A DNA stretch of 64,000 nt from a virus (lineage: Duplodnaviria; Heunggongvirae; Uroviricota; Caudoviricetes), in the IMG/VR virus record IMGVR_UViG_3300045988_151230; one strand, written 5' to 3'. The notes beneath the pieces were generated by a model, which was given only the letters and a program-made list of their open reading frames with translations, was not told the origin of the DNA and did not search any database. A program made the translations under genes and the position numbers. Shown piece by piece: positions 20,019-58,255 of this stretch. Numbering within the stretch: position 1 is the first letter of the stretch; each line of letters starts with the position of its first letter.

Positions 20019-21338
20019 GGGGATATCCCCTGAGGGATCCCCAGAAAATTTAGTAAACCATTATCATATTGGTATACCGTTGCTGTAGAACTTTCAGCCC
20101 TGCGTCAAGTGACAGTGTGTTTAGTATGAGTGGAGAATGTCGAATCACATTCTCCGCCAGTTTTAATAACGAGATGACTCGCCTGTGCTTCACTGTATTT
20201 GCCTGATATTTATGATGTATCCCTTTGTTTTCCAGGCTGAAACCGCTTAACCACATAATGATACTGGCTAATGTTGCGATCAGACTCAATACCGTGACCC
20301 GCCCGGATGAATGACTGGCACCAAACCGTAGTCCAAATCCCCAGCGAGGATTTTTTTCATCCCTGAAATTTTGCTCAATTTGCATTCTACGGCTGTATAA
20401 TTTCATTACCTGTTTTGGCGAGAACTCAGTACTGTTTGTGAAAATAAACCATGGTGATTTCCCGGCAGTACGAGCTTTAGCCGTCACCGATGGTCTGGTT
20501 GCTCTTTCCTTCGAGCGTTTAAATCTACGACCTTTAGGCTTACTTTTATAAAGATAAAAATGCCCTTCATGTTGTGCATTTTTATCTCGACCCAGCAGGC
20601 CTTCACCTAAATAAATTGCTGTCGTTGATGCTTTTGTGCCTGAGTCCGACACCTTTTCCCAGCCATTACCAACATTGTAATAATGATTGCCCAGTACCCG
20701 GCAAATATAGGTCCAGCCACGGGAGCGGAGCTGTTGGAACCATCGCCCCTGAAAACCGGCATCTGTAATAACAATGACATCAGTCCCGGGGGAAAAGCAC
20801 TCAGCAAGCGATTCCAGAAAACGCTCATGTACATCTGCATTCGCTGTCTGTGATGATGGAACGACACAACTCATCAACGGTAAAGAACGCCCGTCACATG
20901 CCAGGCTTGCCCGCAAAAGCTGAAAACGAGAGGCATGATAAGCACTCCAGTCAATGAGTATCACAACACGAGACATTCCCCGCGTAATCTTTTGGGTAAT
21001 TCGCTGAAAAATGGTGGAAACCTCATTTTGCAAATGTCGATTCCCCAACAGTCGATCCACCCGCTTTATTTTGTTTTTAACTGATGCCGTACCGGTTAAA
21101 TGACGCCCGATACTGGTAAGTGTGAGGGAAGCGCCATTTATTACAGCATTAGTTGCGTCAATCAGTGATTTTTGACGGTAAAGATGCAAAGGGGCCAGTA
21201 TGTTGTTAAGGAAATTTTGGCATAATGAACGTGCAGGCATAGTGGTGATCTCCTTGAAATTGTTAGCACAATCAATTAGATCACATCTCACTATGCCTGT
21301 CTTGTTTTCTGGGGATTCCTCAGGGGATATCCCCCACC
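20019..21338. mobile_element. IS4-family (IS10-like) insertion sequence, about 1.3 kb; exact ends ambiguous
   Basis: Terminal inverted repeats (C)TGAGGGATCCCCAGAAAA and TTTTCTGGGGATTCCTCA(G); both junctions carry GGGGATATCCCC. Confidence 0.7.
20050..21240 (-). CDS. IS4-family DDE transposase
   Basis: KRVDRLLGNRHLQ and YSRRMQIEQNFRDEK (Y-2-R-3-E-6-K) signature close to IS10 transposase; start taken at MPARSL inside the IS. Confidence 0.8.
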   Translation of the reverse strand: MPARSLCQNFLNNILAPLHLYRQKSLIDATNAVINGASLTLTSIGRHLTGTASVKNKIKRVDRLLGNRHLQNEVSTIFQRITQKITRGMSRVVILIDWSAYHASRFQLLRASLACDGRSLPLMSCVVPSSQTANADVHERFLESLAECFSPGTDVIVITDAGFQGRWFQQLRSRGWTYICRVLGNHYYNVGNGWEKVSDSGTKASTTAIYLGEGLLGRDKNAQHEGHFYLYKSKPKGRRFKRSKERATRPSVTAKARTAGKSPWFIFTNSTEFSPKQVMKLYSRRMQIEQNFRDEKNPRWGFGLRFGASHSSGRVTVLSLIATLASIIMWLSGFSLENKGIHHKYQANTVKHRRVISLLKLAENVIRHSPLILNTLSLDAGLKVLQQRYTNMIMVY

Positions 21339-21343
21339 ATATG

Positions 21344-23659
21344 TCAGATTTTGCAGGCTCCGTCGCACTCATCTTCTGGCTCGACGGCTACAGCTTGCGC
21401 CAGTGGATTCTGCGGTTCGTCGTCATCACGCTTTCCTGCACCATCTCTGGTGTTGTGGTAGTAAAGCGTTTTAACTCCCATCTTGTAGGCGAGAAGCAAA
21501 TCTGACAGTAGCGTCATCATTGGGACTTTATCGCCTTCAAAGCGAGAAGGGTCATAGTTGGTATTGGCTGAAATAGCCTGGTCAAAGAACTTCTGGATGA
21601 TCGCCACCTTTGTCAGATAGCCGCGGTTGTCCGGCATATCCCACAGGTATTCATACTGTTCCTTCAGTTTTTCAAACTCAGGCACGACCATCTTAACGAT
21701 GCCGTCCTTAGAAGATTTCACCGACACCGGGCCACGAGGCGGTTCGATGCCGTTGGTGGAATTAGTGATCTGGCTGGAAGTCTCGCATGGCATTTGTGCC
21801 GTCAGTGTGGAGTTGCGAAGGCCGTATTTTGCAATACGTTCACGCAGTTCTTCCCACGGCATCTTTAACTCAAAGTTGGTTTCGCCACTTTCGTCTAATG
21901 AAGAACGGTAATGGTCGATCGGCAACTGACCAATTGCGTACTTGGTCTGCTCAAACCAGTCACACTCACCTTTTGCTTCAGCAAGTCGGCAGCTGGCATC
22001 AAGAAGGTAATACTGGATAGCTTCGAATGTTTCATGCACCAGTTTATTGCCAGCGGTATCAGAATAACGAACGCCATTCTTTGCCAGGTAATAAGCAAAG
22101 TTGGTTACACCAATTCCCAAGCTACGACGAGCTTTGGCAGGCACTTCGGCTGCCTCCATCGGATAGTCTTGATAATCCAGTAACGAATCCAGTGCAGCAA
22201 CGGCATAGAACGCCACCTCTTTAAGAGACTCCAGTGAACGGATGGCTCCGAGGTTAAAAGCGGATAAAGTGCATAGCGCGATCTCACCGTTCGGGTCGTC
22301 GGTAAATGCCAGTGGACGGGTGGGTAGGGTGATCTCCATACACAGGTTTGACTGGCGGACAGGTGCAAGAGCAGGAATGAAAGCGCCATGCTCATTAATA
22401 TGATCGACGTTCGCAATATAAATTCGGCCCGTGGACGCTCGTTCCTGCATCAGAGATGAGAACAGCTCAATGGCAGGTACTGACTTCTTGCGAATTGAAT
22501 CATCGGCTTCGTATTTATGGTACAGCTTTTCAAACAGCTCCTGGTCTGTGAAGAAGGCTTCGTACATATCAGGCACATCATGCGGGCTGAACAGAGTGAT
22601 GTTCTCGCTTCTGACGAGTCGACGGTACATTAGACGGTTACTCATGACGCCGTAATCAAGATGGCGAACGCGGTTTTCATCAATACCACGGTTATTTTTC
22701 ACCACCAGCAGACTTTCAACTTCAAGATGCCAGATCGGGTAAAACGCTGTTGCTGCGCCACCACGAACACCACCTTGCGAACAAGATTTAACAGCCGTCT
22801 GGAAATGCTTCAGGAATGGAATAACTCCGGTATGGGTGGCTTCACCATTGCGGATCTCGCTGCCCAGCGCACGGATACGGCCAAAACCAATACCAATTCC
22901 AGCACGACGTGAAACGTAGTCGATAATTGCGGCTGAAGCTGCACTAATCCCTTTCAGACTATCGCCAGACTCAATCAGCACACAACTGGAGAACTGACGG
23001 GTTGGAGTACGGACGCCGGCCATGATTGGTGTGGGCAGAGACAGTTTGAACGTACTTGTAACGTCATAGAAACCTTTGACCATCTCCATACGTGTTTTGC
23101 CAGCGCAGTCGTCTTCCCAATTCTGGAACAGACACATGCCTACCAGCATATAGATATGTTGCGGCCCCTCATGAATCTCACCAGTAACACGGTTTTGAAC
23201 GAGGTATTTGCTTTGCAACTGCACCGTAGCTGCATAGCCAAAAAGATCGTCACGTTTCGGCTTAATGTAATTGCCGAGTTCTTCGATCTCTTCAAACGAA
23301 TAATGTGTCAGCAAATCCTTGTCATAAACGCCCTTGTTAACGTTCTTGACAATGTGTTGGTAGAAGTTCGGATAGTCGTAACGACCGAAGGCATCTTTGC
23401 GGATTTTAAAAATGTTCAGGCGGGCAGCCACCTGTGAGTAATTTGGTGCTTCTGGTGAGATCAAATCAGCGGCAGATTTAACCAAAGCCTCATGCAACTG
23501 GCTGGTGGTCATCCCATCAAAAATGCTGGCCGCAGCTCCCATTGCTACAGCGGATGCGCTTACACCACGAATGCCTTCTACGCCATACATTACGACGCGG
23601 TTGTATTTTTCTTCGGATAACGGCTCTGTTTGGCCGTTACGTTTTACGATGCTTATCAT
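21344..23659 (-). CDS. nrdA: ribonucleotide reductase class Ia alpha subunit
   Basis: 771 aa, collinear with E. coli NrdA including the C-terminal redox tail ending CDGACKI. Confidence 0.9.
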   Translation of the reverse strand: MISIVKRNGQTEPLSEEKYNRVVMYGVEGIRGVSASAVAMGAAASIFDGMTTSQLHEALVKSAADLISPEAPNYSQVAARLNIFKIRKDAFGRYDYPNFYQHIVKNVNKGVYDKDLLTHYSFEEIEELGNYIKPKRDDLFGYAATVQLQSKYLVQNRVTGEIHEGPQHIYMLVGMCLFQNWEDDCAGKTRMEMVKGFYDVTSTFKLSLPTPIMAGVRTPTRQFSSCVLIESGDSLKGISAASAAIIDYVSRRAGIGIGFGRIRALGSEIRNGEATHTGVIPFLKHFQTAVKSCSQGGVRGGAATAFYPIWHLEVESLLVVKNNRGIDENRVRHLDYGVMSNRLMYRRLVRSENITLFSPHDVPDMYEAFFTDQELFEKLYHKYEADDSIRKKSVPAIELFSSLMQERASTGRIYIANVDHINEHGAFIPALAPVRQSNLCMEITLPTRPLAFTDDPNGEIALCTLSAFNLGAIRSLESLKEVAFYAVAALDSLLDYQDYPMEAAEVPAKARRSLGIGVTNFAYYLAKNGVRYSDTAGNKLVHETFEAIQYYLLDASCRLAEAKGECDWFEQTKYAIGQLPIDHYRSSLDESGETNFELKMPWEELRERIAKYGLRNSTLTAQMPCETSSQITNSTNGIEPPRGPVSVKSSKDGIVKMVVPEFEKLKEQYEYLWDMPDNRGYLTKVAIIQKFFDQAISANTNYDPSRFEGDKVPMMTLLSDLLLAYKMGVKTLYYHNTRDGAGKRDDDEPQNPLAQAVAVEPEDECDGACKI

Positions 23660-28545: not shown

Positions 28546-29190
28546 TTACAGCGCGTCAGTGGGCTTTTTACGCGCTGCGTTTATGCTTATGACGCCAGCT
28601 TTTGGACGTGGGTCAACAAGGTTAAGCTCTTCTTCGCTGTGGTATTCGAGGTCGAACTCACGTTTTACATGTCTGATGTAGATTGCGGTGAGCAGGCTAT
28701 CTTTGGTCAGAAAGTGTCCGTAGGATTTGCGGATCACTTCTTCTACCTTCTCGATTTTCTCACCACCCATACAGAGATGATTAAACCGGCTGTGTTTCCG
28801 CAACATTTCGTCTACTGGGCCTGAGTAAACCTTGTCTACTTTCCCAAAACGGATGATTTTCCCTGTGTCTGCGGATACGAGGCAAATCAGCTTGTCTGGT
28901 GATAAACGATCTCGCCACGTCACACCTGAACGGAGTGTGTTGAAGTAGGGAGCATCCAATCCGATGATCGGTTTACGAAATGCGAGTAATGGAACGTACC
29001 TGATGCAACTGTTTAAATGAAAATTCACACCAGCCTTATCAAGTTTAATTCTGGTTTCGTAGATCGGGCACTTCGCCGCTATACCGCAGATGTCACAAAG
29101 CAACTTCTGCTTATTCAGGTTGGAATTTGATTCGATAGTGTAGGAGCCGTCTTCAAGACGACGAACCCAGCGCGTGCGTTTTAGATCCAT
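28546..29190 (-). CDS. hypothetical protein
   Basis: 214-aa ORF next to the replicon origin region. Confidence 0.45.
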   Translation of the reverse strand: MDLKRTRWVRRLEDGSYTIESNSNLNKQKLLCDICGIAAKCPIYETRIKLDKAGVNFHLNSCIRYVPLLAFRKPIIGLDAPYFNTLRSGVTWRDRLSPDKLICLVSADTGKIIRFGKVDKVYSGPVDEMLRKHSRFNHLCMGGEKIEKVEEVIRKSYGHFLTKDSLLTAIYIRHVKREFDLEYHSEEELNLVDPRPKAGVISINAARKKPTDAL

Positions 29191-29268
29191 ATGTCATTTT
29201 TCTGTGATTGTTAGCCGAGGCAACGATAACCCACCAGGTGCGCCGAAGGTAGTAAATGCCTGTTTTAA

Positions 29269-29285
29269 TTATTCACATATCCACA
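29269..29285. promoter_or_regulatory. tandem DnaA boxes TTATTCACA and ATATCCACA
   Basis: 9/9 and 8/9 matches to TTATNCACA at the outer edge of the repA origin region. Confidence 0.5.
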
Positions 29286-29290
29286 GGATA

Positions 29291-29349
29291 GATCCTAATA
29301 AAGAGATCCATAGATAGATCCTTATATAGATCAAATAAGATCCCCGATC
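29291..29349. promoter_or_regulatory. cluster of six GATC sites in 59 bp
   Basis: GATC at 29291, 29305, 29317, 29329, 29339, 29346, between DnaA boxes and iterons. Confidence 0.5.
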
Positions 29350-29390
29350 GCTGTAAGCCGCGCCACGACTGGTCTGAAGTCATGTTCATG

Positions 29391-29491
29391 TATGCTGTCA
29401 GCGGTAATTGATAGTCTGTCAGCGGTTCACCGTATGCTGCCAACTGTTTTTGGTATTCTGTCAGCGGCAAATCAAGTATGCTGTCAGCGGT
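29391..29491. repeat. iteron array upstream of repA (five copies of about 15 bp, consensus TATGCTGTCAGCGGT)
   Basis: Copies at 29391, 29412, 29432 (degenerate), 29454, 29476. Confidence 0.75.
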
Positions 29492-29511
29492 TGAATGACA
29501 AAGGTGTCCAC

Positions 29512-30606
29512 ATGTCCACAAAAAATAAAAAAGGTAAAAATAACAAAGAAGTAGAAGATAACATCGACAACTTTGAAGAAGGTTCCCTTGAATTGTACAC
29601 AGGGGAACTTGTCCCTAATAGCAACAATACAGTCCAACCAATTGCGTTGATGCGACTGGGGTTGTTCGTCCCCACGCTTAAGGGAACAAAATACAGTAAA
29701 CGTAACAAGCCAAATGAGATCGATGCTTCAAAGGAGCTTGTCCAGCTCGAAGTAGCCCGTTCTGAAGGCTATTCCGATATCAAGATAACCGGTCCTCGTC
29801 TCGACATGGATCATGATTTCAAAACGTGGGTGGGCGTTGTGCGTTCGCTGGCAGAATACGGCGAACCTAACGGTCGTGTCGAGTTAAGCATCACGAAATT
29901 TGCTAAGTTTTGTGGCTATCCATCGTCACAGATCCGCAAAACACTCCGCGACCGGCTTACAAACAGTCTTTTGAAGATCATGCGTACAACTCTGTCTTTC
30001 CAGAGAACGTATGAAGAAAAGAACGTCGACGGCTCTAACAAGATCTCGCTTCTGATGGTGCACCTCATCAATAGCGTGGACTACAACGAGCAGAAAGATA
30101 CGGTGGTGTTCTATGCAGAACCGAAGCTGGCCGAACTATATCGCTTTGACCATAAGGTTCTTTTGCAGTTAAAGGTTATCAATAAGCTACCACGCAAAGA
30201 AACAGCACAGGCTCTGTACACCTTCATCGAAAGTCTTCCAACCAAGCCTGCGCCGGTATCGCTTGCTCGATTGCGTGCGCGACTCAATTTGAGTAGCAGG
30301 AATGTCAGCTCGCAGAATCAGACTATACGTAACGGCTTAAAAGCTCTCCAAGATTTGGGCTATCTCGAATACAGCGAGATTAAGCGTGGGCGGTCGATCT
30401 ATATCCAGATTCACAGCCGCAATCCAAAACTCAAAGTCGCACCGCCAAAACCTGAAGACATCGAACCCAAAAAACCAGATGAGAAAGCTGGGGAAATTGA
30501 TGCCAAACAGAACATTATCAACAAGATAACCGAACTTTCGCAGAATTTGACGCCTGAAAATATCAAGATGATTGAGATCCTTTCCAATAGTCTCAAACTG
30601 CTTTGA
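29512..30606 (+). CDS. repA: iteron-type plasmid replication initiator
   Basis: 364-aa plus-strand ORF flanked by matching iterons on both sides; start moved to MSTKNKK downstream of the iterons. Confidence 0.7.
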   Translation: MSTKNKKGKNNKEVEDNIDNFEEGSLELYTGELVPNSNNTVQPIALMRLGLFVPTLKGTKYSKRNKPNEIDASKELVQLEVARSEGYSDIKITGPRLDMDHDFKTWVGVVRSLAEYGEPNGRVELSITKFAKFCGYPSSQIRKTLRDRLTNSLLKIMRTTLSFQRTYEEKNVDGSNKISLLMVHLINSVDYNEQKDTVVFYAEPKLAELYRFDHKVLLQLKVINKLPRKETAQALYTFIESLPTKPAPVSLARLRARLNLSSRNVSSQNQTIRNGLKALQDLGYLEYSEIKRGRSIYIQIHSRNPKLKVAPPKPEDIEPKKPDEKAGEIDAKQNIINKITELSQNLTPENIKMIEILSNSLKLL

Positions 30607-30723
30607 TATGCTGTCAGCGGTGAAATGTATGCTATCAGCGGCTATTTTTCTGAAAAGTATGCTGTGAACGGTTAAAGATATGCTACCAGCGGTATAGTGA
30701 GATGAACGTATGCTGTGAGCGGT
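30607..30723. repeat. iteron array downstream of repA, cluster 1 (five copies)
   Basis: Copies of (T)ATGCT(G/A)(T/C)(C/G)A(G/A)CGG(T/C) starting at the repA stop. Confidence 0.75.
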
Positions 30724-30882
30724 AAATCATCTATCACCACTCAATGCTCTGTCATACCTCCCCAGTGGTTACTAACCTCGAAGAGTGCATTCCATATAGG
30801 TTTGCGCTCACTAACATTCTATTGCTATTGCGCTGATTGCTTGTAGTGAAAGGCATTTATTGCCTGCTACTCCCTGATAGAA

Positions 30883-31137
30883 CGTATGCTGTCAGCGGTG
30901 TTTTATTGAGGAATTTTTGTTTGGATATGCTATCAGCGGTAATTAATGGCATATGTCAGACATTCGTATGCTGCCAGCGGTAATTTTGTTCTGGTTATAC
31001 CCATACCGGTACACATTATTCATGCAATGTCTTAAGTATGCTGTCAGCGGTAAAAAATCGAGTAAAGTATGCTGTGAGCGGTGAGATAGACTCTCGATAT
31101 GCTATCAGCGGTAGTTGATTGTGTATGCTGTCAGCGG
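30883..31137. repeat. iteron array downstream of repA, cluster 2 (seven copies)
   Basis: Copies at 30883, 30924, 30965, 31035, 31065, 31096, 31121. Confidence 0.75.
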
Positions 31138-31185
31138 TGACGACTATGAAATATGACTGCGGAACGTGCCGCAGTCAGTTTGCAT

Positions 31186-31398
31186 TTAGTGTATTTTCTT
31201 TAACAGACCCCAAAGTGTTCCGGCTTTTGTAGTCAGTTTTCCTGTTTCTGGATCGTACATACGCCATTCACGCCGCTGGTGGACGATATACCCATCTTCA
31301 CGTTCCAGACGCTCAAGAATGCCAGGCTGCTTGAAACCCTTAGCACGCCAGTAGCCGCTTGTTTTCTCGATTTCCAGACCTGCCAGTGTTAATGCCAT
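31186..31398 (-). CDS. hypothetical small protein
   Basis: 70-aa ORF. Confidence 0.4.
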   Translation of the reverse strand: MALTLAGLEIEKTSGYWRAKGFKQPGILERLEREDGYIVHQRREWRMYDPETGKLTTKAGTLWGLLKKIH

Positions 31399-33923: not shown

Positions 33924-36263
33924 TTACTCTTCTACTGACTCGGTGGGGTTGTCTTTTGCTCTTCGGTCGTCGATTGCCTGCAAAGCCGCAATGATTTCAG
34001 CCAGTGGCTTCTCCCGATACATCTCGACGATCTGCGATTTGGTGTATTTCTTGTCACCAATTTCAACTCGCCCGCTGGCGTTCTTTGGCAGGTATCCTTC
34101 TTCCAGCATGTACTCGACGAGCGATTCGATAACGTCGAGGCCACGAGTAGGATCGAAGTAGAATTTCCAGGTGCATTTGCCATACGGTGGTGCAACTTTG
34201 TTTTTGATGCATTCTGCGCCTACGTCCTGGCCGATCTTCTCTTTACCATCCTTCATCACCGATGCACCAAGACGGATACGTACAGAAGCGTAGAACTTCG
34301 GTGAATCTCCACCTGGCGACGTAGTAGGGTCGCCAAACATTACACCGATTTTTGTGCGAACCTGATTCAAGAAGATGATGCAGGCGTTGTATTTGCGTGC
34401 CCACAAAGCCAGAGTAGGGAAGTTCGCACTTGTCGCACGAGCCAGTGCCGTATTGTCGTTCATGTTTAGCTGATCTTTGTCTTTGGCAGTGCCTTCAGCC
34501 ATCTTTTCGAACTTCTCGGCTTTGGAGTTCGGAACCATAGACGCAAGTGAGTCAGCCACGATACAGATAGGTGCTGATTCAGGGATAAGCTCTTCATCAC
34601 GTACCAATTTAAGTATTGTGCCGATCAACTCTACAGAGTCTTCGAAGGTGTCAGGCTGCTTGTATACCCACTGACCGTCATCCTCATCTGCGTTCAGGCC
34701 ATTGGCTACAGCCAGGCCAACGTCAAAACTGTTTTCATGATCGAGGAATACCGCCAGACCATCTTGTTTTTGAGCGGAGATCATCGCTGCTGTTGCAAGG
34801 AATGTGTTGTGGCTGATAATCCCGTTAGACCAGAAAGAGTGTGTTTCCGGCATCGCTACGTCGAACGTTGGTGCTTCACCTTCCTCAATAGCCACGACTT
34901 CGTCGTAGAACAAGTTAGAGCCAATTACCGCTGCCAGTTGTGCAAACAGATGCTCGTTAAAACGATTCTTTCTGCCAATGAAGGAGACATAGATTTCTCG
35001 CAGTTTGTCTATTCCGACACGATCGCCGCGGCCAATAACGTGGTCTACCAGAGCGTAGTCTTCACGGGTGGTCTTGGTGAGCGACTCGTAGAGTGATTTC
35101 ACTAAGCCGCTGATGTGCGGAACATAGCCTGAGTAAGTGCGGTCAAAACCAATGTCCCGTTTGGTTGCCACTGATAAACGTGCCGGAGATTCGAAACCAA
35201 TCGTTGACAGAAAAAGGTCGTAATTAGAGCCACTGAATGACAGCCGGTAATATGTATTTTCATAACCCGCGACGTGTTTTTCAGAGATAGTTGACGTAAT
35301 CCCCAGATTCAGGAGCATGAGGCGAATTTGCTGTAGCAGCAGCCCACTCGCGCTCACAACCTCAATGCAGCGACCATCATTGACGTGGCATTCCAGCTCA
35401 AAGTAGCCGCGAAGGAATGCAATTTGAGCCTCGCTATTGGCGCGACGCACACTCAACGGAACCTGCTTGCCAGCAGCTTTCTCATACTCCAGACCATATT
35501 CTTTAAAAAGCAGCGAACGCACCTCTTTGCTAAACAGCACATGGTCTTCCGAGCCGTTATGTTTTCTCGTAACTGGCATCTTGTCTGATACCAGCGAAAT
35601 GAGGCGGTAGTACTCATCCTTGATGAAAGGATCTGTGTTAGAAAAATTCACTGAATTTTCAGAGGCCACGTATCCGTCAGCAATTAAATAGCCCATCAGT
35701 TTTGCGATATTGGCATCCAGGTGCTGATCGCCGAATTGATGTGTGCCAACCATTGAAGGAATCGTGTCGCCTACACTGATTTTTTCAGCATGTCGCCAGA
35801 CGACATTACCTAAGTCGTCAACCACACGGATTGGGTGACGGAACGTAGCCTCGATATAACCGCCTGATGCCAGCTTAATACGCTTGAATTTGCGACGGTT
35901 GTTCCATGTCAGGTGTGAGGTCTTCTCTATCACGCCATTTTCATTGATGAGTCCAACGTTATGCTCTACATCGCGAGTAGTGCATGTCGCTTTGTACCCT
36001 TCAATCTCAAACAACTCTTTCACTGTTACCATTCCACGCTCCGTCAGCAGCATGGTGTCTGCGGTAACACATTTCCCTGCACTTGGAGGACCGAATACTT
36101 CGACGATACGACCACATGGGAAGCCGCCATCGTAACGACCGGAAATAGCTTTGTTTAACGGTGGAAAGCCTGTATCAATCCAATGAGTTACTTTCTGAAT
36201 TTCGTCGTTGCTACCGATTTTCTTTTTCAGAGCAAGTGCCAGTGCGGATTTTCCTTTTGCCAT
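33924..36263 (-). CDS. recA: RecA recombinase interrupted by an intein
   Basis: Exteins align with RecA (GRIVEVFGPPSAGK ... IFLNQVRTKIGVMFGDPTTSPGG ... KNKVAPP); the Walker A is split after GK. Confidence 0.8.
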   Translation of the reverse strand: MAKGKSALALALKKKIGSNDEIQKVTHWIDTGFPPLNKAISGRYDGGFPCGRIVEVFGPPSAGKCVTADTMLLTERGMVTVKELFEIEGYKATCTTRDVEHNVGLINENGVIEKTSHLTWNNRRKFKRIKLASGGYIEATFRHPIRVVDDLGNVVWRHAEKISVGDTIPSMVGTHQFGDQHLDANIAKLMGYLIADGYVASENSVNFSNTDPFIKDEYYRLISLVSDKMPVTRKHNGSEDHVLFSKEVRSLLFKEYGLEYEKAAGKQVPLSVRRANSEAQIAFLRGYFELECHVNDGRCIEVVSASGLLLQQIRLMLLNLGITSTISEKHVAGYENTYYRLSFSGSNYDLFLSTIGFESPARLSVATKRDIGFDRTYSGYVPHISGLVKSLYESLTKTTREDYALVDHVIGRGDRVGIDKLREIYVSFIGRKNRFNEHLFAQLAAVIGSNLFYDEVVAIEEGEAPTFDVAMPETHSFWSNGIISHNTFLATAAMISAQKQDGLAVFLDHENSFDVGLAVANGLNADEDDGQWVYKQPDTFEDSVELIGTILKLVRDEELIPESAPICIVADSLASMVPNSKAEKFEKMAEGTAKDKDQLNMNDNTALARATSANFPTLALWARKYNACIIFLNQVRTKIGVMFGDPTTSPGGDSPKFYASVRIRLGASVMKDGKEKIGQDVGAECIKNKVAPPYGKCTWKFYFDPTRGLDVIESLVEYMLEEGYLPKNASGRVEIGDKKYTKSQIVEMYREKPLAEIIAALQAIDDRRAKDNPTESVEE
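34806..36071 (-). other. intein (about 422 aa) with LAGLIDADG-type homing endonuclease, inserted in the RecA P-loop
   Basis: Starts with Cys after GPPSAGK, ends with His-Asn before Thr; internal LMGYLIADGYVA and FLRGYFELE blocks. Confidence 0.7.
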
Positions 36264-50796: not shown

Positions 50797-50883
50797 TGGC
50801 GGAGAGTAATGGAATCGAACCATCATCGCTTGCGCAATGGGACGGTTTTCAAGACCGCTTGAGCACCATGCTCCCTACTCTCC
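50797..50883 (-). tRNA. tRNA-Ser (anticodon UGA), class II with long variable arm
   Basis: GGAGAGT/ACTCTCC acceptor stem, anticodon loop CTTGAAA, T-loop TTCGATT, encoded CCA. Confidence 0.8.
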
Positions 50884-51100
50884 AATTGTTGTGGTTACCG
50901 GTACTGATCTCCGGCTTAGCGACCCCGGCTACTGACTGCATTGCAGTGTGTGAACTCGCCTCGTGTGTCGCTGGGGCATTTCTTTCCGCGCATCAGTCTG
51001 CGCATCAACCACAACGAAAAGAGCACTGTATGACGTTTGCACGGACTTACGCTTAAAACAGGGCAGTCTCGGCGGTTTTCAATGCTCTTTCCTGTTGTGT

Positions 51101-51176
51101 TGGTGCCGGTTAACGGACTCGAACCGCTGACATCCTGCTTACAAGGCAGGCGCTCTACCAACTGAGCTAAACCGGC
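51101..51176 (-). tRNA. tRNA-Thr (anticodon UGU)
   Basis: GCCGGTT/AACCGGC acceptor stem, D-arm GCTCAGTTGGTAGAGC, anticodon loop CTTGTAA, encoded CCA. Confidence 0.85.
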
Positions 51177-51180
51177 AATT

Positions 51181-51267
51181 TGGTGGGGAGTGATGGAGTC
51201 GAACCACCCGAGTCGCAATGACAGTAGATTTACAGTCTACACCGCTACCTCTACGGACTAACTCCCC
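51181..51267 (-). tRNA. tRNA-Tyr (anticodon GUA), class II
   Basis: GGGGAGT/ACTCCCC acceptor stem, anticodon loop CTGTAAA, long variable arm, T-loop TTCGACT, encoded CCA. Confidence 0.8.
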
Positions 51268-51272
51268 TAAAT

Positions 51273-51347
51273 TGGCGATGGTGGGTGGATTCGAACCACC
51301 GACCAGTTGGTTAACAGCCAACTGCTCTACCGCTGAGCTACACCATC
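51273..51347 (-). tRNA. tRNA-Asn (anticodon GUU)
   Basis: GATGGTG/CACCATC acceptor stem, anticodon loop CTGTTAA, T-arm GGTGGTTCGAATCCACC, encoded CCA. Confidence 0.85.
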
Positions 51348-56914: not shown

Positions 56915-58255
56915 TTAGGTAACGTCTAAGATTCGCTCAATGAAGCGCATTTGTTCGAGGTTTTGTTTAACGCGAATGCTGATCCCTCCCTGCTGGTTAC
57001 GTGAACCAGCAAAGTAGAGACGAGCCTCTCCTTTCGCTTCTTCTTCTTCGGTTTTGTTGATCGTTATTACCAGGTCAGCAATACGTACTTTTTCGATGTT
57101 GTCGGCAGCGTGCATCATTGTGGCAACTTCTGACGCGCCACCTTCACGGTTTGTCTGCGATGCCGTGATCCCAGCAACGTTATGCTTGTCATAAAGAGCA
57201 CGTAAATCGGTGTAGATACTACGAATGTTGGCGCGATCATCACGAAGGTCATAACTGGCACGCATCAAATCTGCGTAGTCGACAACAACCATGTCAGGCA
57301 CCATGCCATTGGCTTTCATGCTGTTAAGCATACGGTCCAGATCTGCCGGTGACATACTTCCTGACGGACGCTCAACCACCCACAAACTACCAATCCCCTT
57401 CGTGGCTCCCAACTCTGCCAACTTACGATGAACCTCATCGCGCCGTTCCACCAGCTTGGACATTTCTGTCTCCGACAATCTTGCATCAAAACGGTCGGAT
57501 AAAATGGTGGTGTGAACCTCCAGCGAGAGATACAGAACATTGTAGCCAGCAAGCGTTGCGTTTATGGAAAACTCACCCATTGCGGTCGATTTACCGGATT
57601 TAGCGAACCCCATGAAGAGCACCATTTCGCGCTTTGCCCAGCCTTTTTGGTACAGCAACCTATCGAGAAGAGGGAGTCCAGTTGTAATACTGTTTGGTAC
57701 ATACTCCTCTGAAGCCTCATATTCACGCGCTTTCAATCGCTCACTTGCGGAGGTGTAGTAGTCATAGATTCCGGTCGCTTCGTTCGATCCAATCTGCTGA
57801 ACCTTGGCCATGATTGCCATCGCCCCCTGAAAGTCGCCTTTCTCTTTCAGTTCAGCAGCCTTAATCAGAGCATCATCAAACGCTACACTTTTTGCGAAGG
57901 TTGATACCTGGTCAACCATGTACGAGGTATCGGACAATTTTTCTGCAAGAATGCGCTTAAACGCAGCAACAACATCGGCGAATAGTTCCTCACGGATAGT
58001 CTTATCGCGTTTCGCACGCTTAAGCATATCCAGAATTGCAGATGAAGAGGGCGCGCTCTTGTACATACGATAATAGCCCGAAACCATATTAACCAATATG
58101 GCATTGGCCGCATTGGCAAACTGGCTAGGCACAACCAGATCTCCCGCACGAGTAAGAAACTCGTGATCACGACAAAAATATGCCGTCAGTCTGTTCTGGA
58201 AATCTTCATCAAACTCTTCGGACAGCCCGCGTCCTGTATGGCAAAGTTCGGTCAT
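56915..58255 (-). CDS. DnaB-like replicative DNA helicase
   Basis: Walker A GFAKSGKST, Walker B VVVDYADL, RecA-fold C-terminal domain; 446 aa. Confidence 0.8.
   Translation of the reverse strand: MTELCHTGRGLSEEFDEDFQNRLTAYFCRDHEFLTRAGDLVVPSQFANAANAILVNMVSGYYRMYKSAPSSSAILDMLKRAKRDKTIREELFADVVAAFKRILAEKLSDTSYMVDQVSTFAKSVAFDDALIKAAELKEKGDFQGAMAIMAKVQQIGSNEATGIYDYYTSASERLKAREYEASEEYVPNSITTGLPLLDRLLYQKGWAKREMVLFMGFAKSGKSTAMGEFSINATLAGYNVLYLSLEVHTTILSDRFDARLSETEMSKLVERRDEVHRKLAELGATKGIGSLWVVERPSGSMSPADLDRMLNSMKANGMVPDMVVVDYADLMRASYDLRDDRANIRSIYTDLRALYDKHNVAGITASQTNREGGASEVATMMHAADNIEKVRIADLVITINKTEEEEAKGEARLYFAGSRNQQGGISIRVKQNLEQMRFIERILDVT

Follow-up and report, generated by a model that had tools for sequence, protein, structure and literature searches.

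Features of the locus

The window, i.e., the whole 64,000-nt stretch of viral DNA analysed here, contains a replicon made of an origin, an initiator gene (repA) and two downstream arrays of iterons, as well as a pair of partition genes. The features are the following (coordinates, strand, description):

29269..29285, + strand: tandem DnaA boxes, TTATTCACA + ATATCCACA, at the left edge of the origin
29291..29349, no strand assigned: six GATC (Dam) sites in AGATCC-type heptamers, A+T-rich, homologous to P1 oriR
29357..29367, + strand: GC-rich spacer GCCGCGCCACG, conserved with P1 oriR
29391..29491, + strand: five origin iterons (incC equivalent), core TATGCTGTCAGCGGT
29450..29479, + strand: putative repA promoter, TTGGTA-18 nt-AAGTAT, over iterons 4 and 5, placed by homology to P1 PrepA
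29504..29520, + strand: two DnaA-box-like 9-mers, GTGTCCACA and ATGTCCACA, with 2 mismatches each, over the repA start codon
29512..30606, + strand: repA, iteron-binding initiator of 364 aa, assigned by homology to P1 RepA and by its Rep3 WH1 domain
30607..30723, + strand: proximal downstream block, five iterons, spacing 21, 30, 21, 30
30885..31138, + strand: distal downstream block, seven iterons, spacing 41, 41, 70, 31, 30, 26
31154..31177, found on both strands: GC-rich hairpin with a 9-bp stem, closing the replicon
60448..60807, - strand: gene for a 119-aa partner of ParA, its start overlapping the parA stop
60807..61475, - strand: parA, Walker-type partition ATPase of 222 aa, assigned by NCBIfam/Pfam, about 30 kb from repA

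An earlier note on this DNA had listed tandem DnaA boxes, six GATC sites, five iterons, repA and twelve downstream iterons, all of which were recovered, positions included. In the DnaA pair, the TTATTCACA box (29269-29277) perfectly matches TTWTNCACA, and the ATATCCACA box (29277-29285), which has one base in common with it, carries one mismatch. Single DnaA boxes are not enriched across the 64-kb window (8 seen versus 7.4 expected); what makes the pair significant is that its boxes are in tandem and are positionally homologous to the tandem pair of P1: it aligns with the annotated P1 oriR pair TTATCCACATTATCCACT, and is also present in the Klebsiella relative used for comparison. The GATC sites, at 29291, 29305, 29317, 29329, 29339 and 29346, all lie within 60 nt. 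Nowhere else in the window are there at least four such sites per 60 nt, and the Poisson expectation for at least six per 60 nt anywhere in the window is about 0.02. This cluster, which corresponds in alignment to the five Dam sites annotated in P1 oriR, is presumed, by analogy, to be the opening and SeqA/Dam-sensing region. The 11-mer GCCGCGCCACG is identical in P1, the window and the Klebsiella relative. As for the two 9-mers over the repA start codon, their sequence makes them weak candidates for DnaA boxes; a better box stands immediately 5' of the repA ATG in each of P1, JK004 and the Klebsiella relative.

Iterons were searched for with the 15-nt core TATGCTGTCAGCGGT, allowing up to 3 mismatches, over the whole 64-kb window and in shuffles of it. 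The window holds 21 matches versus 1.37 expected, a count equalled by no shuffle, and 17 of the 21 fall in 29391-31138, every one on the + strand. The origin iterons start at 29391, 29412, 29433, 29454 and 29477 (spacing 21, 21, 21 and 23), i.e., they are direct repeats spaced by about two helical turns, in an array that ends 21 nt before the repA ATG. The first downstream iteron starts at 30607, the base that follows the end of the repA ORF (30606); the other starts are 30628, 30658, 30679 and 30709 in the proximal block, and 30885, 30926, 30967, 31037, 31068, 31098 and 31124 in the distal one.

The RepA initiator and the expression of repA

The kinship of RepA with the P1 and RepFIB initiators, which the earlier note had put forward for comparison, is borne out. 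Identity to P1 RepA is 46% over 278 aa, which is the whole P1 protein (E 3e-86), tblastn of RepA to P1 and P7 gives E values of about 1e-64, and identity to the RepFIB initiators, present in thousands of IncF plasmids, is about 50% over aa 24-309. The Rep3 WH1 domain is recognized by Pfam (Rep3_N, 37.5 bits versus a cut-off of 22.4, E 3.9e-09), and no NCBIfam model matches the protein. PDB sequence searches with RepA alone and with a five-sequence RepA profile found no meaningful relative, so that the winged-helix assignment is that of Pfam. The sole PDB match was to an aldo/keto reductase (E = 1.9).

RefSeq sets the start of repA at 29392, within iteron 1, probably too far upstream. The ATG at 29512, which gives the 364-aa protein, is also used in the record of phage PhiR41_1; an AGG Shine-Dalgarno lies at 29502-29504, and homology to P1 RepA starts at aa 32 of the 364-aa form. 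No + strand sigma-70 promoter was flagged 5' of repA in a scan for the consensus. With the annotated P1 PrepA (TTGCTA/TAGGAT) as a guide, however, a putative promoter can be placed at 29450..29479, where by analogy it would be subject to autorepression. At the other end of the replicon, the hairpin at 31154..31177 is terminator-like and faces a convergent gene (31186-31398, - strand). Rfam, at gathering thresholds, matches only tRNAs elsewhere in the window and nothing in 29-31.5 kb, and thus gives no support for an antisense or regulatory RNA in the replicon.

Relationship to the P1 replicon

The earlier note had recognized an oriR/incC-repA-incA layout like that of P1, and the order of the elements, i.e., DnaA boxes, GATC cluster, GC-rich spacer, five 21-bp-spaced iterons, repA and downstream array, indeed agrees with the annotated P1 record at every feature. 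The same layout is found in Cronobacter JK004, SSU5 and Klebsiella pJN2-26, and the downstream array begins at the repA stop codon in P1, JK004, SSU5 and the Klebsiella relative, as here. At the nucleotide level, the origin is 73% identical to P1 oriR overall, with a visibly closer match in the DnaA/GATC/GC-spacer half.

Several differences are nonetheless clear. There are six GATC sites here versus five in P1, and the iteron core is TATGCTGTCAGCGGT whereas that of P1 is ATGTGTGCTGGAGGG, so that incompatibility specificity is expected to differ. The repeats here do not have the P1 iteron sequence GATGTGTGCTGGAGGGAAA that would be expected with P1/IncY specificity; given its iteron core, this replicon is a relative of the P1 replicon rather than the P1 replicon proper (IncY). 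In addition, P1 has nine downstream iterons, three direct and six inverted, an incA layout also found in JK004, while the twelve of the window are all direct and form two blocks; the geometry of iteron pairing may differ from that of P1 as a result. Finally, compared with P1 RepA, the protein is extended by about 12 residues at the N terminus and by a 55-aa tail at the C terminus, and carries an internal insertion of 8 aa.

Relatives among plasmids and phage-plasmids

Over the 2001 nt from 29200 to 31200, p09EL50 and several further plasmids from E. coli and Shigella match the window at 100% identity. The same replicon DNA recurs in complete records of circular ~110-kb plasmids, more than 100 in all, in keeping with the view of the earlier note that the element is maintained as a plasmid. 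More broadly, over positions 21323-44000 the window matches ~110-kb E. coli plasmids, p09EL50 among them, at 98-99% identity. MOB-suite types the replicon in the ~110-kb plasmids as rep_cluster_488, and the replicon type bears the PlasmidFinder name IncFIB(H89-PhagePlasmid) (PMC12838234). The element pECOH89 was isolated as a plasmid and encodes the same RepA protein as p09EL50 (PMC3999498); the pECOH89/p09EL50 type is, for practical purposes, the same replicon as the one described here. Strains that hold IncFIB(AP001918) and IncFIB(H89-PhagePlasmid) plasmids together have been reported (PMC12838234), and from this co-carriage the two IncFIB types appear to be compatible.

The SSU5 supergroup of phage-plasmids has been described previously (PMC7969092, PMC8085198), and the replication genes of SSU5 (IncFIB) are included in typing tools (10.1101/2025.09.12.675607). 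The window shows synteny around repA with SSU5, Cyrano (pLF82) and Klebsiella IncpKPHS1, and SSU5-type RepAs have the C-terminal tail in common with the RepA described here. In contrast, matches to RepFIB initiators stop at aa 307-309, leaving the tail without detectable similarity. Some records label close Klebsiella homologues 'RepFIB replication protein A'. SSU5 RepA is only 48% identical to that of the window, its iteron is approximately CTATCCACTGTAGAGAG and the orientations of its downstream iterons are mixed. The Klebsiella type shares the iteron core of the window, and its five origin iterons occupy identical positions, at the same offsets from the repA ATG. Its downstream iterons are arranged as 4 + 4, not 5 + 7. 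The paper on IncpKPHS1 gives only four iterons 3' of repA (PMC6735626); pJN2-26, as counted here, has 5 + 8 iterons, i.e., more than four downstream. Among the relatives compared, the iteron core is constant at 85% RepA identity and changed at 48% or less.

Conservation and variation of the iterons

Comparison with the Klebsiella relative separates iteron cores from the DNA between them. In the origin, 69 of 75 core positions are identical versus 27 of 46 in the spacers; in the proximal block, where four of the five iterons are positionally conserved, the figures are 53/60 and 13/27. Pooled, cores are identical at 122 of 135 positions (90%) and spacers at 40 of 73 (55%; Fisher p = 1.2e-8), for a nucleotide identity of 76% between the E. 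coli and Klebsiella repA genes. As judged from this pattern, the iteron cores are under purifying selection. The TATGCTGTCAGCGGT iterons are putative binding sites for RepA.

The number of distal iterons, on the other hand, differs by isolate. The replicon of phage PhiR41_1, 99.3% identical to that of the window, lacks 31036-31122 and thereby three iterons, while p4_0.2 has a 26-nt duplication in the distal block, equivalent to one iteron more. Downstream totals in otherwise near-identical isolates are thus 9, 12 or 13, and the distal block is recombination-prone. The gap between the two blocks (30724-30884, ~160-165 nt) has no ORF of note; as it holds 8 of the 14 substitutions relative to PhiR41_1, it is treated as a presumably unconstrained spacer.

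Partition and replication genes

The earlier note also called on parA and a partner gene in support of low-copy maintenance. Both genes are present, but they lie 30 kb from repA and are not of the P1 type. P1 par is a type Ia system that adjoins the replicon; it comprises a large ParA, whose N-terminal domain binds DNA, together with a parS site and a ParB of about 330 aa. Here, ParA has 222 aa and its partner 119 aa, and no convincing repeats came to light when the surroundings of the par genes were searched for a centromere. ParA matches the NCBIfam ParA_partition model (E 1.9e-33) at 115.7 bits, under the curated cut-off of 180 bits, as well as Pfam MipZ/CbiA/AAA_31, and is annotated as ParA in PhiR41_1. 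The 119-aa protein matches no Pfam family and is presumed, from the position of its gene, to be the centromere-binding protein.

The phage-type replisome reported in the earlier note is confirmed by the flanks of the replicon, which encode Pol III alpha, RecA, a 5'-3' exonuclease and a DnaB-like helicase (56915-58255), in addition to an SbcCD-like pair and NrdAB; the element also encodes a primase.

Proposed mode of replication and copy-number control

The explanation that we favour, with a probability of about 0.9, is that this is the plasmid-prophage replicon of an SSU5-supergroup E. coli phage-plasmid of the pECOH89/p09EL50 lineage, an iteron replicon of the P1/RepFIB type. Following the P1 model, RepA monomers would bind the five 21-bp-phased origin iterons and host DnaA the tandem boxes at the left edge of the origin, and the A+T-rich GATC region would open once fully Dam-methylated, allowing loading of the replicative helicase. 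RepA bound to the origin iterons would also cover its own promoter and so repress its own synthesis, while the twelve downstream iterons, as the incA equivalent, would restrain copy number both by titrating RepA and by RepA-mediated pairing with the origin iterons (handcuffing). Copies would then be segregated by the unlinked small ParA and its 119-aa partner. By analogy with P1 and RepFIB, we infer that replication depends on DnaA and Dam, that repA is autorepressed, that handcuffing takes place, that copy number is low and that the downstream arrays control it. For Cyrano, a relative, 5.5 copies per chromosome have been reported (PMC9928086).

Two further ideas, both unlikely, stem from the absence of the 55-aa tail from P1 RepA and from the all-direct, variable nature of the distal block: the tail might couple the initiator to the element's own DnaB-like helicase/replisome or to the lysis-lysogeny switch, and the distal block might act as a reversible copy-number rheostat. 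If true, such an iteron rheostat could underlie gene-dosage phenotypes reported for such phage-plasmids.

Some iteron plasmids have extra iterons with roles besides control. The downstream blocks could likewise be a second origin, a replication enhancer or the missing partition site rather than mainly a copy-control element, and the lack of centromere repeats beside parA would fit the last of these. This is nevertheless very improbable, since the blocks have the same core as the origin iterons, and should thus bind RepA rather than the ParA partner, have neither DnaA boxes nor a GATC/A+T-rich region, and sit at the repA stop in a position homologous to P1 incA, an annotated incompatibility/control locus. 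Their copy number of 9, 12 or 13 by isolate also fits tunable control better than an essential origin.

The fairly complete replication toolkit encoded in the window (DnaB-like helicase, primase, Pol III alpha) could also mean that the RepA/iteron unit is a vestige, and that the element, as a prophage, uses a different origin and its own phage-type replisome. We give this very little credence: repA is intact and near-invariant, with 3 differing positions over 1095 nt in PhiR41_1 versus 8 substitutions in the ~165-nt inter-array spacer, and the purifying selection on the iteron cores, the conservation of the whole architecture from P1 to SSU5 and the MOB-suite typing of the ~110-kb plasmids by this very replicon (rep_cluster_488) all argue against a vestige.

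Lastly, the record of Klebsiella phage pJN2-26 labels two 20-nt copies of the repeats attR and attL, but an att identity of the repeats flanking repA is rejected as next to impossible on the grounds of their number (13 copies in pJN2-26, 17 here), their phasing at 21 to 41 bp and their position on either side of a Rep3-family initiator exactly as in P1; the elements are moreover deposited as circular plasmids, and the label appears to stem from automated calling, which would flag any pair of direct repeats.

Annotation and significance

The window thus represents an SSU5-supergroup phage-plasmid, a prophage most probably kept as a plasmid by a replicon of the P1/RepFIB type. This replicon is already known, i.e., sequenced, typed and catalogued, and raises no new biological question. 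The main value of the analysis is one of annotation, namely a base-level map (5 + 5 + 7 iterons, DnaA boxes, GATC cluster and likely repA start) that is missing from database records. Two of these records appear to be wrong, the RefSeq one in starting repA inside an iteron and the phage one in calling iterons att. The control iterons and their variable number are useful background for work on copy number and incompatibility, and such elements carry ESBL genes, e.g., blaCTX-M-15, in clinical E. coli (PMC3999498, PMC12838234). Outside the replicon, p09EL50-type plasmids differ from the window only at the level of isolates, by an IS insertion beside nrdA and an intein in recA.

Relationship to known phage-plasmids

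The segment 29200-31200, which carries an origin, repA (29512-30606, + strand) and two downstream blocks of iterons, shares 100% identity with the E. coli O104:H4 plasmid p09EL50, as well as with further circular plasmids of E. coli and Shigella, mostly about 110 kb in size. A coverage of 80% or more is reached by 121 plasmid records, the replicon is 99.3% identical to that of the sequenced phage PhiR41_1, and positions 21323-44000 match such plasmids at 98-99%. These plasmids form part of the SSU5 supergroup of phage-plasmids (PMC7969092; PMC8085198). One of this kind, pECOH89, was recovered as a non-conjugative plasmid with the same RepA as p09EL50 (PMC3999498). The plasmid type is named IncFIB(H89-PhagePlasmid) (PMC12838234) and, according to a 2025 preprint, SSU5 (IncFIB) replication genes are already in typing tools. 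The replicon is a member of a known family, already sequenced, typed and widely distributed. Its interpretation as a plasmid replicon, proposed in the earlier note, is supported by RepA homology, by the P1-like layout and by this identity to circular plasmids. For the relative Cyrano, 5.5 copies per chromosome have been measured (PMC9928086).

The RepA initiator

RepA is an initiator of the Rep3 family (Pfam Rep3_N, WH1, 37.5 bits versus a cut-off of 22.4). Comparison with the P1 and RepFIB initiators, which the note had called for, revealed homology to both: 46% identity over 278 aa with P1 RepA, i.e., nearly the whole 286-aa protein (E 3e-86), and about 50% with the initiators of thousands of IncF plasmids. 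Identity reaches 48% with the SSU5 and Cyrano proteins and 85% with those of Klebsiella phage-plasmids. Relative to P1 RepA, the protein is longer by about 12 residues at the N terminus, by an internal insertion of 8 aa and by a C-terminal tail of 55 aa (aa 310-364, positions 30439-30603), in which a Pro/Lys/Glu-rich part precedes a hydrophobic-rich one; this tail is present in the Klebsiella and SSU5 RepAs, but absent from those of P1 and Cronobacter JK004.

RefSeq places the start of the identical gene at 29392 (WP_001348683.1, 404 aa), inside the first origin iteron. Several lines favour instead the ATG at 29512 (364 aa), since the PhiR41_1 record starts there, the region homologous to P1 RepA starts at residue 32 of the 364-aa protein, and an AGG Shine-Dalgarno motif (29502-29504) lies 7 nt upstream.

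Organization of the replicon

The tandem DnaA boxes, six GATC sites, five iterons and two downstream arrays totalling twelve more that had been claimed are all present, at the following positions read from the sequence.

29269-29277: DnaA box 1, TTATTCACA
29277-29285: DnaA box 2, ATATCCACA, abutting box 1
29291, 29305, 29317, 29329, 29339, 29346: six GATC sites
Upstream of repA, + strand: five origin iterons, spaced by 21, 21, 21 and 23
From 30607, after the repA stop codon, + strand: proximal block, five iterons
30885-31138, + strand: distal block, seven iterons

Taken singly, DnaA boxes are about as frequent in the window as expected (8 versus 7.4), so that the weight of these two comes from their tandem arrangement and P1 homology, not from statistics. 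Two weak DnaA-like 9-mers lie across the repA start codon, a position where P1, JK004 and the Klebsiella relative (phage-plasmid pJN2-26) have a better box. Nowhere else in the window are there at least four GATC sites per 60 nt, and a Poisson estimate for clusters of six or more is about 0.02 per window. The iteron core TATGCTGTCAGCGGT, with up to three mismatches, occurs 21 times versus 1.37 expected, a number that none of the shuffles reached; 17 of these 21 copies fall within 29391-31138, all on the + strand. Downstream spacings are mostly close to multiples of the helical turn (21, 30, 31, 41), as in P1 incA, with 26 and 70 as exceptions.

In P1, as judged from the annotated record and sequence, tandem DnaA boxes are followed by five Dam sites, then five incC iterons that are 21 to 22 bp apart and have PrepA among them, repA, and nine incA iterons, the first of which ends at the repA stop codon. 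The order is the same here, and the half made up of DnaA boxes, GATC sites and GC-rich spacer can be aligned to P1 oriR in nucleotide sequence, including an identical GCCGCGCCACG. The proposed oriR/incC-repA-incA layout thus holds for the order of elements but not for downstream orientation: the twelve iterons are all direct and split into two blocks by a 160-nt spacer, whereas those of P1 and JK004 are three direct, then inverted.

A de novo search in five replicons found this architecture in all, with an iteron core that follows RepA divergence. The core of the Klebsiella relative (RepA 85% identical) is the same as here, that of SSU5 (48%) is different, about CTATCCACTGTAGAGAG, and P1 and JK004 have yet another, ATGTGTGCTGGAGGG. 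The joint presence of IncFIB(AP001918) and IncFIB(H89-PhagePlasmid) plasmids in the same Hungarian isolates (PMC12838234) fits with distinct iteron specificity. In the pJN2-26 record (MZ779062), two iterons flanking repA (1378-1397 and 2648-2667) are labelled attR and attL, almost certainly through an error of automated annotation.

Between the E. coli and Klebsiella replicons, iteron cores are identical at 122 of 135 positions and inter-iteron spacers at 40 of 73 (Fisher p = 1.2e-8), with 76% nucleotide identity in repA. The higher conservation of cores than of spacers shows that the repeats are under purifying selection, as would be expected for protein-binding sites. The 160-nt spacer looks unconstrained, and holds 8 of the 14 substitutions relative to PhiR41_1. 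The distal block varies in iteron number: three iterons are missing from PhiR41_1 through an 87-nt deletion between repeats (31036-31122), and p4_0.2, whose origin iteron 3 also has a point change, gained one more via a 26-nt duplication.

A likely mode of replication control

The established functions of P1 oriR, incC and incA agree with what the P1 record notes and, by homology, the replicon most likely operates in the same way. RepA monomers would bind the five phased origin iterons and DnaA the tandem boxes, and the methylated GATC/A+T-rich region would melt. RepA on iterons 4 and 5 would repress its own promoter, for which a candidate by position is TTGGTA-18-AAGTAT (29450-29479), a weak match unflagged by a promoter scan. 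The downstream iterons may restrict copy number, both by titration of RepA and through RepA-mediated pairing with origin iterons.

Partition genes and genomic surroundings

The note had also invoked parA and its partner. Both genes are real, on the - strand:

60807-61475, - strand: parA, 222-aa small Walker ATPase
60448-60807, - strand: parA partner, 119 aa, no family

They lie, however, about 30 kb from the replicon, and a P1 type Ia parAB-parS module, which in P1 directly follows incA, is ruled out. ParA matches NCBIfam ParA_partition with E 1.9e-33 and 115.7 bits, below the curated cut-off of 180 bits. No centromere-like repeat array was found near the operon (60380-61680); hairpins bracket it at 61624-61651 and 60405-60442.

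The claimed phage replication module around the replicon was recovered, with Pol III alpha, a DnaB-like helicase, an annotated primase and a 5'-3' exonuclease, together with an SbcCD-like ATPase and nuclease, NrdAB and an intein-containing RecA. Immediately flanking genes (28546-29190 and 31186-31398, both - strand) are kept beside repA in SSU5 and the Klebsiella relative; one product, of 214 aa, contains Cys and matches no Pfam family, and the other, of 70 aa, has the label 'putative Cre-associated protein' in SSU5.

A DDE transposase (Pfam DDE_Tnp_1, 440 aa; 20050-21372, - strand) adjoins nrdA, and this IS insertion is particular to this copy, because the best-matching plasmids align only from about 21323 on. 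Four clustered tRNAs (50797-51347, - strand) are Ser-TGA, Thr-TGT, Tyr-GTA and Asn-GTT; for pECOH89, Thr and Asn tRNAs only were described (PMC3999498). Finally, the RecA-like gene (33924-36263, - strand; 779 aa) harbours an intein that carries a LAGLIDADG homing endonuclease, whereas p09EL50 has at the same place an intein-free recA of 1074 nt (about 357 aa).
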